Sequence record: KY703222
Strand: one strand, 5' to 3'
Source of the DNA: Escherichia phage phiC120
DNA length: 64,000 nucleotides
The position numbers and the translations under genes were made by a program. Below the pieces are notes generated by a model, which was not told where the DNA came from, did not search any database, and saw only the letters and a list, made by a program, of their open reading frames with translations. Below, piece after piece: positions 7,554 through 59,334 of this stretch; the first letter of the stretch is position 1, and the number at the start of each line of letters is the position of its first letter.

Positions 7554-7690
7554 TTCATAGGTCTATTATATCATAATATTTAGAGACCTATCTTAAAGCA
7601 CGAGATACTATCAAAGATACGTAACTTTCATAAAGTTGACGACTTAAAATTCACCAAACTTTTCTTCGGTTATAGCAATTCGAGATAGTT

Positions 7691-8247: not shown

Positions 8248-8284
8248 ATTATTTTCCTCGGTTATTTTATTATCCAACGAGAGC

Positions 8285-8313
8285 ATTATACTCTGCTCTC
8301 AAGAGTCTGTACA
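8285..8313 (-). promoter_or_regulatory. Early-type promoter (TGTACA-N17-TATAAT), copy 1 of a duplicated 55-bp cassette
   Basis: Near-identical 55-bp block at 8262..8316 and 38572..38625; palindrome GAGAGCA...GCTCTC flanks the -10. Confidence 0.5.
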
Positions 8314-8554
8314 CTATTTTTTAAGCATGAAAAGCAAGTAATTTGTATCACGTGGAGTAATATCAACACCCATATCAAAGATGCCTTTATAGATTGGGTA
8401 TTTGTTTTCGGTTGTATCGAAGCTGAAACTATTTCCATCACATCTAACAGTAATAGCATCTGTTAAAATGTCATACTCAATCCTAACAATTGAATCCCCA
8501 ATTTTAACGTCGAGGTGTTTTTTTGAATTTGATAAAATCTAATTCTTCGGCCAT
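8314..8554 (-). pseudogene. Small gene interrupted by a frameshift at an A7 run (intact product about 79 aa)
   Basis: ATG 8554 with GAGGA SD; frame stops after 16 codons and the ORF continues in a second frame after the T7/A7 run at 8518..8524; removing one A gives MAEELDFIKFKKHLDVKIGDSIVRIEYD...NYLLFMLKK. Confidence 0.4.
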
Positions 8555-19740: not shown

Positions 19741-19767
19741 GTTTTACCTCCAGTAGTTGATAGGTCT

Positions 19768-19796
19768 ATAATAACATAACCATAGACCTTGTAAAC
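19768..19796 (-). promoter_or_regulatory. Early-type promoter GTTTAC-N17-TATTAT with palindrome AGGTCTAT / ATAGACCT
   Basis: Upstream of gene 19213..19740. Confidence 0.55.
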
Positions 19797-21101: not shown

Positions 21102-21130
21102 ATAATAACATGTTTAAAGCAAAAGTAAAC
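21102..21130 (-). promoter_or_regulatory. Early-type promoter GTTTAC-N17-TATTAT
   Basis: Upstream of the AAA+ ATPase gene; conserved box GATAGGTCTATAATAACA. Confidence 0.55.
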
Positions 21131-21132
21131 AA

Positions 21133-21351
21133 TTATTTGCGATGAGATTTTTTGGTAAGAGGTTGAAAGAACACTGCTTTACCAGCAGGAGTCAAAGTGA
21201 CTCGTAATGCATTACCGATTCCCAAGGATGCTTTAACCAGACCTTTAGATTTCAGTTCACCGAATGCTTGTCGTTGGTCTGCATCACGAGTGTTAACCAT
21301 AAGTCCTTTATCACCAGCTTCACGAATCATTTCTAACATTTTGGTTTTCAT
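21133..21351 (-). CDS. Small basic protein
   Basis: 72-aa ORF between the ATPase and the nucleotidyltransferase-like gene. Confidence 0.45.
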   Translation of the reverse strand: MKTKMLEMIREAGDKGLMVNTRDADQRQAFGELKSKGLVKASLGIGNALRVTLTPAGKAVFFQPLTKKSHRK

Positions 21352-21381
21352 TTTGTTTTCTCCTCTTGTTTTGATAGGTCT

Positions 21382-23469: not shown

Positions 23470-23773
23470 TTAAAGTTTCAACAAAATTCACCAAATCATT
23501 CAGACAAGCATCAACCTGTTTTTCATAAAAGTCTTCGTTATCATTTACTGCATGATAAGCTACATCATTCAAATCTGAATCGGCTTCACGTAAGTTACGG
23601 ATAAGTTCCATCAATTTATTAGCTTGTTCACGGGTCATTTTACCATACTCGTTTCAATAAGATTCACTATGCCGTTTACCATGTTATAAGTAAACATCGG
23701 ATAATTGTATTGTACTACAATATAAGCGATAAGCAAAAGTTTCATTTTGTTCTCCGTTCGTTTTGGTAGGACT

Positions 23774-23803
23774 ACTATAACATAGTCCTACCAAGATGTA
23801 AAC
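23774..23803 (-). promoter_or_regulatory. Early-type promoter GTTTAC-N18-TATAGT inside a 10-bp palindrome
   Basis: GGTAGGACTA-ctataaca-TAGTCCTACC. Confidence 0.5.
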
Positions 23804-24196: not shown

Positions 24197-24223
24197 AACG
24201 TTCTCCTCTAGTAAGTAAGGTCT

Positions 24224-24252
24224 ACTATAACACAACCTGAGGAGAAGTAAAC
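24224..24252 (-). promoter_or_regulatory. Early-type promoter (GTTTAC-N17-TATAGT) with anti-SD arm
   Basis: 8-bp inverted repeat TTCTCCTC (24201..24208) / GAGGAGAA (24239..24246) links the spacer to the SD of the 24196 gene. Confidence 0.55.
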
Positions 24253-27847: not shown

Positions 27848-27875
27848 TTTTATTTCTCCTCTAGTTGACAGGTCT

Positions 27876-27904
27876 ATAGTAACACAACTAGAGGAGAAGT
27901 AAAC
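27876..27904 (-). promoter_or_regulatory. Early-type promoter (GTTTAC -35, TACTAT -10) for regB with anti-SD arm in the spacer
   Basis: Minus strand GTTTAC-N17-TACTAT; 12-bp perfect inverted repeat 27856..27867 / 27885..27896 pairs the spacer with the regB SD GAGGAG. Confidence 0.6.
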
Positions 27905-31259: not shown

Positions 31260-31673
31260 TTAGTAAATTGATTTACCATAGTATTTGTACCAAGTGGGAC
31301 GTTGAGCAATTTTTTCATCTAAGCGTGCTTGACTTATCGCAATGGACGCTTCGGACGGGACATAATTATTACGAAATTCTACAGGAATGTCGGAAATATC
31401 CTGGACTGTCGTGTCCTTGATTTTGAAACCACGTTTCAAACATTCAGCTATTAGCTCGATTTGACGTAAACGTAAAAATTCGAGTTTGTCGTAAAAGAAT
31501 GTTACGTGGCCCGTGCCTAAAATAAATGTTGGAGAGATTTTAAAATCTTTTACACGTTTACCATTTTGAACATGTTTACGGACTGCACCGAATACACGAG
31601 GTAATTCACGATACTCAGCCATAAGATGTTGGTCGGTCAGTTCAGAAACAAGTGTTAAATTGATACGAGTCAT
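31260..31673 (-). CDS. denV: Endonuclease V (pyrimidine-dimer DNA glycosylase) DenV
   Basis: [34 protein letters not shown]...[10 protein letters not shown] matches T4 endo V; start at internal Met of ORF 31260..31685. Confidence 0.92.
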
Positions 31674-31700
31674 AATTTCCTCCAAGTAGTTGATAGATGT

Positions 31701-31730
31701 ATAGTATCAAAACCCTTGGAGGAAGTAAAC
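31701..31730 (-). promoter_or_regulatory. Early-type promoter for denV with anti-SD arm in the spacer
   Basis: GTTTAC -35 at 31725..31730; 10-bp perfect inverted repeat 31677..31686 / 31715..31724 pairs the spacer with the denV SD GGAGG. Confidence 0.6.
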
Positions 31731-34698: not shown

Positions 34699-34726
34699 AA
34701 TATTCTCCTCATGTTTTAATAGGACT

Positions 34727-34756
34727 ACTATAACATAGTCCTATAATTGTGTAAAC
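34727..34756 (-). promoter_or_regulatory. Early-type promoter GTTTAC-N18-TATAGT inside palindrome ATAGGACTA / TAGTCCTAT
   Basis: Upstream of gene 34393..34698. Confidence 0.5.
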
Positions 34757-35993: not shown

Positions 35994-36020
35994 TGTAGAC
36001 TCCATTTAATTTGATAGGAC

Positions 36021-36050
36021 TACTATAACATAGCCCTATCTTGTTGTAAA
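36021..36050 (-). promoter_or_regulatory. Early-type promoter GTTTAC-N18-TATAGT
   Basis: Upstream of gene 35754..35993; box GATAGGACTACTATAACATAGCCCTATC. Confidence 0.5.
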
Positions 36051-36055
36051 CTGTT

Positions 36056-38549: not shown

Positions 38550-38591
38550 ATTATTACCTTTCAATTGGTGGTTTTATTATCCAACGAGAGC

Positions 38592-38620
38592 ATTATACTC
38601 TGCTCTCAAGAGTTTGTAAA
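38592..38620 (-). promoter_or_regulatory. Early-type promoter, copy 2 of the duplicated cassette
   Basis: Same sequence as at 8285..8313, upstream of the 37956..38549 gene. Confidence 0.5.
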
Positions 38621-38848
38621 TTATTTTTTAATCAAATTGACATAAAACTTGGCGTCTTCTGGGTGCATGCCTTCGCAGTATTCTTCAACCATGAACTTCT
38701 TAACAGCTTCATAAGGACCACTCAGATTAAGCTCAGTTGTCCAGAACTTGGAATCTTGGACTGAATCGATACGAACTTCAGGGTGACGGTTGCGAATAAC
38801 TTCTTCGGTGTATTCATAATCAACGACATCAATACTAACTGTAGCCAT
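38621..38848 (-). CDS. Hypothetical protein
   Basis: 75-aa ORF with AGGAG SD and early-type promoter. Confidence 0.5.
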   Translation of the reverse strand: MATVSIDVVDYEYTEEVIRNRHPEVRIDSVQDSKFWTTELNLSGPYEAVKKFMVEEYCEGMHPEDAKFYVNLIKK

Positions 38849-38906
38849 TTTGTTTCTCCTCTTGATTTGATAGGTCTATAGTAACACCGTCCATGGTGTT
38901 TGTACA

Positions 38907-39935: not shown

Positions 39936-39966
39936 CAAAAAGCCCTATCATTTAGATAGGGCTTTA
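39936..39966 (-). terminator. Intrinsic terminator after IP-like gene 39970..40533
   Basis: Minus strand AAAGCCCUAUC-UAAAU-GAUAGGGCU followed by UUUUU. Confidence 0.65.
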
Positions 39967-41870: not shown

Positions 41871-41947
<77 letters not shown>

Positions 41948-41953
41948 AATATA

Positions 41954-42027
41954 TGACCCAGACCAGATTCGAACTGGTAACCTTTCCCTTATGAGGGGAC
42001 TGCTGCTAACCGTTGAGCTACAGGGCC
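41954..42027 (-). tRNA. tRNA-like gene with CAU anticodon (Met or Ile2), non-canonical stems
   Basis: Minus strand GGCCCTG...ACCAG-TTCGAAT-CTGGT-CTGGGTC-A; anticodon loop CUCAUAA; one U-U mismatch in the acceptor stem and an irregular D-arm. Confidence 0.6.
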
Positions 42028-43462: not shown

Positions 43463-43500
43463 TTTATTTCTCCATTTACTCGTTTTGTTTTGATAGGACT

Positions 43501-43530
43501 ACTATAACATAGTCCTATCGGCATGTAAAC
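43501..43530 (-). promoter_or_regulatory. Early-type promoter GTTTAC-N18-TATAGT inside palindrome ATAGGACTA / TAGTCCTAT
   Basis: Upstream of gene 43277..43462. Confidence 0.5.
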
Positions 43531-43855: not shown

Positions 43856-43885
43856 ATAGTAACACACCATCATCTTTATGTAAAC
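43856..43885 (-). promoter_or_regulatory. Early-type promoter GTTTAC-N18-TACTAT for the ipI-like gene
   Basis: Upstream of 43534..43821. Confidence 0.5.
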
Positions 43886-57520: not shown

Positions 57521-59334
57521 TGAAACAAAATATTAAAATTGGGAACGTCGTTGATGACGGACAAGGCGATTACCTTCGTCGTGGTGGTGCAAAAATTAAT
57601 GAAAACTTTGATGAGTTGTATTATGAATTAGGCGATGGCGAAGTTCCATATTCCGCTGGTGCCTGGAAAACATACCATTCTTCAGATGGACTTAATTTAG
57701 CTGCTGAATGGGGTAAATCATACGCAATTGATACTTCAACAGGGCGTGTTTCTATAAATTTACCTAAAGGAACAGTGGAAGATTATAATAAAGTAATTAG
57801 AGCCCGTGATGTATTCGCCACATGGAATATTAACCCTGTAACATTAATTGCTGCTAGCGGTGATACTATTAAAGGTTCTTCTAACCCAGTAGAAATCAAT
57901 GTGCAGTTTTCAGACTTAGAATTAGTTTACTGTTCTCCTGGGCGCTGGGAATACGTTAAAAATAAACAAATAGACAAAATTACTAGTTCTGATATTAGTA
58001 GTGTAGCTCGTAAAGAATTTTTAGTCGAAGTTCAAGGTCAAACTGATTTTCTTGATGTATTTGGGTCTGTTTCTTATAATGTGAATAATATCCGTGTAAA
58101 ACATCGTGGTAACGAATTATACTACGGTGATGCGTTCAGTGACAATAGTGACTTTGGTTCTCCTGGAGCTAATCCTGGAGAAATCGTTGCACTAGATGGT
58201 AAAAACATCCGTCTAAGACAACCGTGTAATATCGGCGACACCGTACAAATTGAAACCTTTTTGGATGGGATTACACAATTACGCAGTTCTTATTCTCGCC
58301 GCCAAATACGTATTTTAGATTCGAAATTAACAACCCGTCCTTCCTTAGAAGGAAGTGTATATGTCGCTGATTTGTCAACTTTGAAATCTATTCCTTTTTC
58401 TGCATTTGGAGTTAATCCTTCAGAACCGGTCAATACCAATTCTTTAGAAGTTCGTTTTAATGGTATTCTTCAAGAATTAGCTGGTACTGTTGGTTTACCT
58501 ATGTTCAGATGTGAAGGCGCTGACGCAGAAACTTCTACCGAGTGTTCAGCTTTAGGTGGGACTTGGGTTACATCTAACACAGATTATTCTATTGAATATG
58601 ATGATAACGATGCAACTATCGCACGTGCTTTAGTCTTTGACCGTAAGTTTGAAGACCAAGACATTATTGATATTACATGGTTTAATAACGATTTAGGCAC
58701 TTTATTAAGTATCGATGACATTTTAGATACAACTGATGAAAGGTATGTCGCACAAGGTGCAACCGTAAATGTGACAGGCGATGTGGCTTTGACCGATTTC
58801 AATAATATCGGATGGCCTAATGTAGAATCTGTTCCTGCATATAGCAGGGAATTCTCGTCTATTGCAAATATTTTTAACACCATTTACCCTGTCGGTACTA
58901 TTTACGAAAATGCAGTGAACCCTAATAACCCAGCCACGTATTTAGGATTTGGCTCTTGGAAATTATGGGGGCAAGGAAAAGTATTAGTTGGATGGAACGA
59001 CGATATTAGCGATCCTAATTTTGCATTAAATAATAACGACCTTGATTCTAGCGGGAATCCTACACATACCGCCGGTGGAACAGTCGGAACAACGTCTAAC
59101 ACACTAACTAATTCTGATTTACCTCCTACTCAAACTGACGAGAAAGTTCTTATTTCCGATGAGAACGGTACAATTATTATTGGTGGTTGTCAATACGACC
59201 CTGATGCAGAAGGTCCTATATACACCAAATACCGTGAAGGCCACGCCACAACGAATAGTACACACATACCGCCTCAAGCCGTAAATAATATTCAACCGTC
59301 AGTTACCGTATACCGTTGGGTAAGGATTGCATAA
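57520..59334 (+). CDS. 10: Baseplate protein gp10
   Basis: 604 aa [23 protein letters not shown]... Confidence 0.85.

Follow-up and report, generated by a model that had tools for sequence, protein, structure and literature searches.

Promoter-early stem-loops (PeSLs) were defined in RB49 and phi1 by Arbiol et al. in 2010 (PMC2839356). In these elements, a stop codon within an A/T-rich tract is followed by a strong σ70 promoter, a stem-loop, a Shine-Dalgarno sequence and an ATG, and the subclasses include stems that overlap the −10 box, with G-T pairs marked (PMC2839356). Attenuation of upstream transcription by the stem-loops was proposed, with lacZ reporter evidence for one G/C-rich RB49 stem, and recombination between PeSL cassettes was proposed to shuffle small genes (PMC2839356). 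Comeau et al. (2014) extended PeSLs to PST/T4 and nt-1/KVP40, the T-even stems being located just upstream of the promoter (PMC4122927). Inhibitory hairpins that form only on read-through transcripts of T4, at e, soc, 49 and I-TevI, have been reviewed (PMC3014915), and "additional regions of consensus" beyond the σ70 elements have been described for the T4 early promoters (PMC2988021). Our literature search found no description of PeSLs for RB69-type phages.

Here, a stretch of 64,000 nucleotides from Escherichia phage phiC120 (KY703222), referred to as the window and numbered from its first letter, was analysed. The starting point was a minus-strand early promoter at 23774–23803 (the flagged promoter), which a sequence-only reading had singled out together with other copies of a repeated promoter box and with palindromes centred on the −10 element. 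We consider it likely that these promoters form PeSL-type intergenic cassettes of an RB69-like phage, in which the hairpin would serve as an attenuator or barrier on read-through RNA and the promoter repeats as recombination patches.

Genomic setting of the flagged promoter

The 4-kb stretch around the flagged promoter matched hundreds of T4-family coliphages. The best-annotated close relative was Shigella phage Shf125875 (96% identity), which is classified as Mosigvirus and whose genes are annotated against RB69, and RB69 was collinear with the window. Judged by these comparisons, the whole 64-kb window is Mosigvirus DNA, from an RB69-like relative of T4. The flagged promoter is located within the early minus-strand region (nrdC ... 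mobD ... rI, tk, regB, e, tRNA, ipI); in T4-type phages, small accessory genes form a plastic zone here. An Rfam scan of the window detected two tRNAs only and no family matching the hairpins; by comparison with RB69 and Shf125875, the two genes, at 41874–42027 on the minus strand, are tRNA-Arg and tRNA-Met. Promoter features were absent from the GenBank and RefSeq records of T4.

Early promoters of the window

The pattern GTTTAC-N17/18-TAnnnT was found at 21 sites in the window, compared with 2.1 expected. Nineteen of them were minus-strand sites from 9 to 44 kb, within the nrdC-tk-e-tRNA-ipI region, which bears out the earlier claim of a repeated promoter box with at least 14 minus-strand sites. 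The shared downstream box that had also been claimed was recovered as TAGWCCTAYC, with 21 matches at one mismatch or fewer against 9.1 expected in the window. The early-promoter sites were the top-scoring σ70 matches and carry TGn, and the 25 nt upstream of the promoters were 72–88% A+T compared with 63% for the window. The upstream ORFs end at 23803, 38621, 19799, 43534, 36056 and 34769, that is, 0–13 nt from the −35 element, and the upstream stop codon either overlaps the −35 element or lies within 13 nt of it, as in PeSLs. GGAG, GAGG or GAG followed by ATG was present 12–30 nt past the hairpin in all seven cassettes. The promoter copies flank RB69ORF102c, ORF107c, ORF133c-136c and similar genes; the occurrence of many copies beside small genes in plastic regions is likewise a PeSL property. 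Every PeSL feature that can be tested on sequence was present in the cassettes of the window.

At 7 of the 19 minus-strand GTTTAC sites, the stretch that directly follows the −10 element (−7 to about +3) can pair with the promoter spacer (about −26 to −16), which gives a hairpin of 7–13 bp with the −10 element in its loop. Perfect arms of at least 7 bp spanning the −10 element were found at 6 of 17 promoter-like sites, against 0.22 expected and a maximum of 2 in 2000 spacer shuffles; these six promoters fall into only three independent families, which is still well above expectation. The sense RNA folds of the hairpins ranged from −12.6 to −21.3 kcal/mol, with z scores down to −6.2. Several other promoters of the window have no hairpin spanning the −10 element. 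A small hairpin is located between the −35 and −10 elements at promoters 17135 and 38906, and a true terminator is located upstream of promoters 24252 and 21410. An intrinsic (Rho-independent) terminator was ruled out as the identity of the hairpins spanning the −10 element, since they are followed by CAAAAC or GTTGGA and have no T tail; none of the 20 terminator-like sites found by a scan of the window coincided with them.

The cassettes with such hairpins are the following.

23763..23803, minus strand: flagged cassette, family 1, upstream of a 36-aa mobD.2-like ORF
34719..34756, minus strand: family 1 cassette upstream of an RB69ORF133c-like gene; ATAGGACTA-N8-TAGTCCTAT at 34719-34744; −12.7 kcal/mol, z −3.3
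36013..36051, minus strand: family 1 cassette; hairpin GATAGGGCTA / TAGTCCTATC at 36013-36040; −16.0 kcal/mol, z −5.3
43492..43530, minus strand: family 1 cassette upstream of a tRNA.4-like gene; hairpin GATAGGACTA / TAGTCCTATC at 43492-43519; −16.6 kcal/mol, z −5.9
19762..19796, minus strand: family 2 cassette upstream of nrdC.9; AGGTCTAT-N12-ATAGACCT at 19762-19789; −13.4 kcal/mol, z −2.5
38586..38621, minus strand: family 3 cassette between frd.3 and e.6; GAGAGCA-gagtataa-TGCTCTC at 38586-38607
8279..8314, minus strand: second copy of the family 3 cassette; hairpin at 8279-8300

The family 1 pattern ATAGGACTA-N8-TAGTCCTAT, with three mismatches or fewer, occurred four times (23766-23791, 34719-34744, 36014-36039 and 43493-43518) against 0.02 expected. 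The four palindromes placed at 23774, 34727, 36021 and 43501 by the sequence-only reading are therefore real; these coordinates give the low end of the −35 to −10 span on the minus strand, 8 nt above the start of the palindrome. The minus strand of the flagged copy reads GTTTAC-atc-TTGGTAGGACTA-tgtTATAG-TAGTCCTACCAA. Its −35 element GTTTAC (23798-23803) shares bases with the upstream ORF's stop codon, its 18-nt spacer ends in TGn, and its extended −10 element TGTTATAGT has the hexamer TATAGT at 23774-23779. The hairpin TTGGTAGGACTA / TAGTCCTACCAA, at 23763-23794, has 12-bp arms and an RNA fold of −21.3 kcal/mol (z −6.2), and differs from the other family 1 copies by one compensatory A:T to G:C pair. 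The copy at 36051 contains one G.U (G.T) pair, which is conserved in Shf125875, RB69 and LF82-3, and the cassette at 43492..43530 is at the border of the internal-protein locus. Folded as RNA, the stem of family 1 is longer by a U.G pair and has a loop of 6 nt.

The family 2 palindrome, which had been noted at 19768, was confirmed at 19762-19789. It has a 12-nt loop and a centre shifted by 3 nt, and its register is therefore not that of family 1; as RNA, it forms 11 pairs including two G.U pairs around a 6-nt loop. Family 3, whose hairpins are at 38586-38607 and 8279-8300, was absent from the earlier list. It has the same geometry as family 1, with the right arm beginning at the last T of the −10 element, and the −35 element of its 38586..38621 cassette is ATTTAC and overlaps the stop codon of frd.3. 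The arm sequences of the three families are unrelated to each other. In the folds, the hairpins of families 1 to 3 end 12–20 nt before the Shine-Dalgarno sequence and leave it free.

Three further palindromes of the window were recorded. At the early promoter 43856-43885 (minus strand), a stem with G.U pairs, GATGATGGT-gtgtt-ACTATCATC, overlaps the −10 hexamer in a geometry unlike that of families 1 to 3. TGCTTTA, similar to a MotA box, stands ahead of a wider palindrome at 7557-7591, ATAGGTCT-N19-AGACCTAT, that has TATAAT inside it. A bidirectional terminator-like hairpin at 39939-39965, AAAGCCCTATC-attta-GATAGGGCTTT, has arms that share the CCTATC/GATAGG motif with the promoter downstream box.

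Covariation of the arms and orthologous promoters

Homologous promoters were drawn from AR1 (Tequatrovirus), Shf125875, RB69, LF82-3, NHEP36 and T4, and further homologues were taken from IMG/VR contigs by use of a pattern that leaves the arms free. An IMG/VR scan with GTTTAC-N15-TGTTATANT was set aside; the matches listed were mostly from unrelated contigs. An exact 16-mer scan with the family 1 core gave about 8 T4-like copies in 40 loci, with a few variants and one recombinant junction (L128).

The alignment of family 3 (the e.6 type, 19 distinct sequences) contains an 8-pair helix in which 98% of the cells are standard pairs. Five of the eight pairs were changed on both sides, for example from C:G to U:A, from A:U to G:C and from G:C to C:G. 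Neither its covariation score nor its percentage of paired cells was reached in any of 500 shuffles, and controls with a slid partner reached at most 53%. In the family 1 alignment, which holds 25 distinct sequences, changes on both sides affected 6 of 13 pairs, the covariation score was again reached in 0 of 500 shuffles, and the slid controls reached at most 64%. The shuffle control ignores shared ancestry; the slid controls preserve relatedness, and the changes hit different pairs in different lineages. The earlier argument that the arms differ between copies and yet remain complementary is strongly supported by the covariation in other phages; within the window it is weaker, the 19768 copy being in another register.

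When anchored on the downstream gene, the orthologues of the flagged promoter in RB69, Shf125875, LF82-3, NHEP36, AR1 and T4 all retained the helix. The T4 orthologue is located upstream of mobD.2 (T4 57947-57990) and has the arms GTTGACAAGATTA / TAATCTTGTCAAC. The T4 and AR1 orthologues are in the same register as the window copy and differ from it by four compensatory pair changes, and the helix is retained between T4 and the RB69-type phages although the downstream gene is only about 71–74% identical. Loss of the palindromes from orthologous promoters of related phages, which the sequence-only reading had named as evidence against a selected structure, was not what was found. Anchoring on the downstream gene ruled out the T4 mobD.5 promoter as the orthologue of the flagged promoter; the mobD.5 promoter has an upstream terminator in place of a palindrome.

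The arms at this position of the promoter comprise at least seven unrelated sequences across T4-family loci. A.C or other mismatches were present in some copies (RB69 copy d, NHEP36 and L127a), and one promoter of Shf125875 and RB69 has the same right arm with a decayed left arm. Because some copies are mismatched or decayed and several promoters have no hairpin, the hairpin is dispensable for promoter activity. The nrdC.9 promoter has different structural solutions in different groups: in Mosigvirus genomes, it has the hairpin spanning only the −10 element (AGGTCTAT/ATAGACCT), whereas in T4 and AR1, the spacer GTTCCTC pairs with the Shine-Dalgarno sequence GAGGAAC.

Helices between the spacer and the Shine-Dalgarno sequence

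At three promoters of the window, the spacer pairs with a region farther downstream.

27854..27904, minus strand: regB promoter; a 14-bp helix across the −10 element joins the spacer TTCTCCTCTAGTTG to CAACTAGAGGAGAA, within which is the regB Shine-Dalgarno sequence
24201..24252, minus strand: promoter 24252; the spacer TTCTCCTC pairs with the Shine-Dalgarno sequence GAGGAGAA over 8 bp; directly ahead of the −35 element there is a canonical terminator
about 31650-31730, minus strand: promoter 31730, upstream of a denV-like ORF; TTCCTCCAAG pairs with CTTGGAGGAA over 10 bp

The regB helix covaries, since T4 and AR1 have TTTTCCTCTTGACTG / CAGTTAAGAGGAGAA at this position. From the predicted pairing, the ribosome site of regB would be buried on read-through RNA and free on the RNA made from its own promoter. 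Enrichment of spacer-to-Shine-Dalgarno pairing across the window, with G.U pairs allowed, was not significant (5 against 3.2 expected, P = 0.19), and the cases reported here are only the three long Watson-Crick ones.

Rearrangements at the cassettes

Among about 17 indel events that separate the window from four close relatives, 7 had a breakpoint inside a cassette, whereas the cassettes make up 3.9% of the sequence; since cassettes are intergenic, this comparison is confounded. A deletion in LF82-3 (21111-21356) removes the 72-aa RB69ORF102c-like ORF, which in the window lies between the adjacent promoters 21410 and 21130. Both junctions of this deletion are inside promoter cassettes, which is the outcome that recombination between neighbouring PeSLs would give. 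An insertion of 251 bp was found exactly at promoter 36939. Shf125875 and LF82-3 have an extra internal-protein gene, Ip7, inserted at 43473-43488 (L164 35017-35403), exactly on the 3' border of the family 1 cassette. With this insertion, the tRNA.4-like gene has another hairpin promoter, GATAGGGT-N12-ACCCTATC. These breakpoints in cassettes agree with the shuffling of genes by PeSLs.

Two other differences between relatives were observed. Three relatives have a 185-bp insertion at 7612-7614, beside the palindrome at 7557-7591. Upstream of frd.3, close relatives differ by a promoter swap (window 38869-38906, L164 at about 31330-31367). In the window, the promoter there has TGTACA and a small hairpin, ACACC-atggac-GGTGT, between the −35 and −10 elements; the frd.3 promoter of Shf125875 and RB69 is family 1-like with a decayed left arm (GTAAGTTTA compared with TAGTCCTAT).

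Strand preference of the hairpins and alternative explanations

The non-Watson-Crick cells of the alignments were counted on the sense strand. Family 3 had 16 G.U cells against one C.A cell, and family 1, with its invariant inner U.G pair excluded, had 15 G.U against three A.C. A strict automatic tally of mismatches gave a weaker bias of nine G.U against four A.C, with one A.C counted twice. The sense fold was better than the antisense fold in 50 unique hairpin promoters and worse in 4, and, by arm family, better in 15 and worse in 2; the mean fold energies were −14.6 kcal/mol for sense and −11.5 kcal/mol for antisense; this asymmetry arises partly from the G/T-rich TGnTATAGT core itself. The bias points to a structure that is single-stranded and on the sense strand, most simply RNA, and a G.T bias of the sense strand would also fit a hairpin in the non-template DNA strand. 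As far as comparative sequence analysis can tell, the conclusion that the pairing is maintained by selection holds, through the compensatory changes together with the sense-strand G.U bias.

It is unlikely that the palindromes act at the level of DNA, as a cruciform or single-strand hairpin at the promoter that shuts off early promoters (for example, in dependence on supercoiling or read-through) or that provides a structure-specific recombination site. Several copies are perfect palindromes that fold equally well on both strands, recombination breakpoints are found in or beside palindromes, one RB49 mini-circle crossover was mapped to the loop of a stem-loop (Arbiol et al., PMC2839356), how T4 early promoters are shut off awaits an explanation (PMC2988021), and the sense G.T bias could come from the non-template DNA strand. 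However, the arms are short (7–13 bp), and a symmetric duplex cruciform gives neither the large excess of G.U-type over A.C-type pairs nor the better folding of the sense strand. In addition, many early promoters are without the palindrome, which is therefore no general shut-off device, and the spacer-to-Shine-Dalgarno helices at regB and the denV-like gene make sense only as RNA.

Template switching at quasi-palindromes yields concerted changes in both arms. A very improbable explanation is that the hairpins have no selected function and reflect the spread of one promoter cassette or such template switching, with the apparent compensation due to shared ancestry. The four family 1 copies are nearly identical, and common ancestry is clear for these and for the two family 3 copies; some copies are decaying, and concerted two-arm changes may be expected from template switching. 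On the other hand, the spread of one cassette does not account for at least seven unrelated arm families with the same placement, or for multiple independent double-sided changes at different pairs. The retention of the helix between orthologues of T4 and RB69-type phages whose downstream gene has diverged, and the large excess over spacer shuffles, also argue against this explanation, and template switching alone gives no G.U bias on the sense strand.

An operator over the −10 element for a dimeric phage or host protein that represses or activates the early promoters can hardly be reconciled with these data: the dyad symmetry centred on the −10 element, the fixed 8-nt gap of families 1 and 3 and the several copies per genome would suit it, but the arms are unrelated between families (AGGACTA, GAGAGCA, GGGGTCA, GACAAGATTA and others), the double-sided changes within families (5 of 8 and 6 of 13 pairs) keep complementarity and not the half-site sequence that an operator should conserve, the half-site centres are about 16–18 bp apart and hence on different helix faces, and the DNA loses its dyad symmetry through the G.U-type asymmetry. 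The sequence-only reading had left the choice between a selected hairpin and a dimeric protein-binding site; covariation and orthologues speak for the hairpin, and the unrelated arms, the changes on both sides and the sense-strand G.U pairs disfavour the protein site.

Discussion

We favour the reading of these elements as PeSL-type cassettes with a hairpin on read-through RNA. Each cassette comprises, in 60–70 nt, the upstream stop codon, an A/T-rich tract, a strong σ70 early promoter of the form GTTTAC-N17/18-TGnTATAaT, a Shine-Dalgarno sequence and a start codon. From the standard σ70 geometry, the +1 position is predicted to be about 7 nt past the −10 element, inside the 3' arm. RNA made from the cassette's own promoter would start inside or just after the 3' arm and could form no hairpin; the hairpin would be present only on transcripts that were initiated at upstream promoters and read through, a few nucleotides past the upstream stop codon. 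By analogy with the published PeSL work, this read-through hairpin would be an attenuator or a 3'/5' barrier that insulates neighbouring gene cassettes, and the repeated promoter sequence of 40–60 bp would be a homology patch at which recombination inserts, deletes and swaps small genes. Attenuator, RNA-decay barrier, insulator and recombination aid could each be a role of the hairpins.

A wider claim is that the early-promoter spacers of the T4 family systematically encode the 5' arm of an RNA or non-template structure that exists only on read-through, by which a promoter's own transcript and the read-through transcript are distinguished; the hairpins spanning only the −10 element would then be non-canonical insulators, and the spacer-to-Shine-Dalgarno variants would silence the translation of read-through RNA. 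We regard this as doubtful. If it were true, the insulators would act as a barrier to RNase E scanning, as a block to 3' exonucleases or as attenuators. In a bolder version, extrusion of the palindrome after read-through may contribute to the shut-off of early promoters.

The present comparisons show that selection acts on pairing in the stem-loop half of the cassettes, which is more than a by-product of repeated promoters. The retention of the hairpin at orthologous promoters from T4 to the RB69-type phages supports a real role at the level of RNA, or at least of a single strand. The hairpins may attenuate, stabilise or insulate polycistronic early mRNAs, and the natural compensatory variants offer a clean set for testing their function. 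The cassettes are also relevant to the shuffling of small accessory genes among therapeutic and model T4-like phages.

The promoters of the window share the −35 element GTTTAC, the spacing of 17–18 nt, the TGn of the extended −10 element, the A/T-rich upstream tract and further conserved regions outside the σ70 elements with the T4 early promoter consensus (UP, −35 GTTTAC, TGn and −10; Hinton 2010, PMC2988021), and this comparison agrees with their earlier description as T4-type early promoters. In a subset of the window promoters, the 3' arm of the hairpin is formed by the conserved downstream box AG(A/T)CCTATC, whereas the extra conservation in T4 was not attributed to a hairpin in that review. 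Rho-independent terminators are alike in having a stable hairpin directly after a stop codon; they differ by the U/T tract after the stem, which the cassettes do not have. For the hairpins at e, soc, 49 and I-TevI of T4, the promoter lies within the DNA for the 5' arm and only transcripts initiated upstream form the helix; the predicted geometry of the cassettes, with the +1 position inside the 3' arm, would fit this pattern. In contrast, the known cases use late or middle promoters, bury the Shine-Dalgarno sequence or the AUG, and block translation; burial of the Shine-Dalgarno sequence of this kind is absent in families 1 to 3 and present at regB, 31730 and 24252.

The closest resemblance is to the PeSLs themselves, with which the cassettes share the order of their parts, stems on the −10 element with G-T pairs, many copies in plastic early regions, and indels and swaps at these sites. 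The RB49 stems are polyG/polyC and the PST/T4 stems are AGNA-loop-TCNT upstream of the promoter, whereas the stems of the window are richer in A/U, are strictly placed around the −10 element, are without a T tail, and occur in Mosigvirus with other stem sequences. What is new here, by sequence comparison, is the formal covariation, the sense-strand bias and the T4 orthologue. The hairpins are no new category; they belong to the PeSL class, which was published with its proposed roles in 2010 and 2014, in a genus for which it had not been specifically described before.
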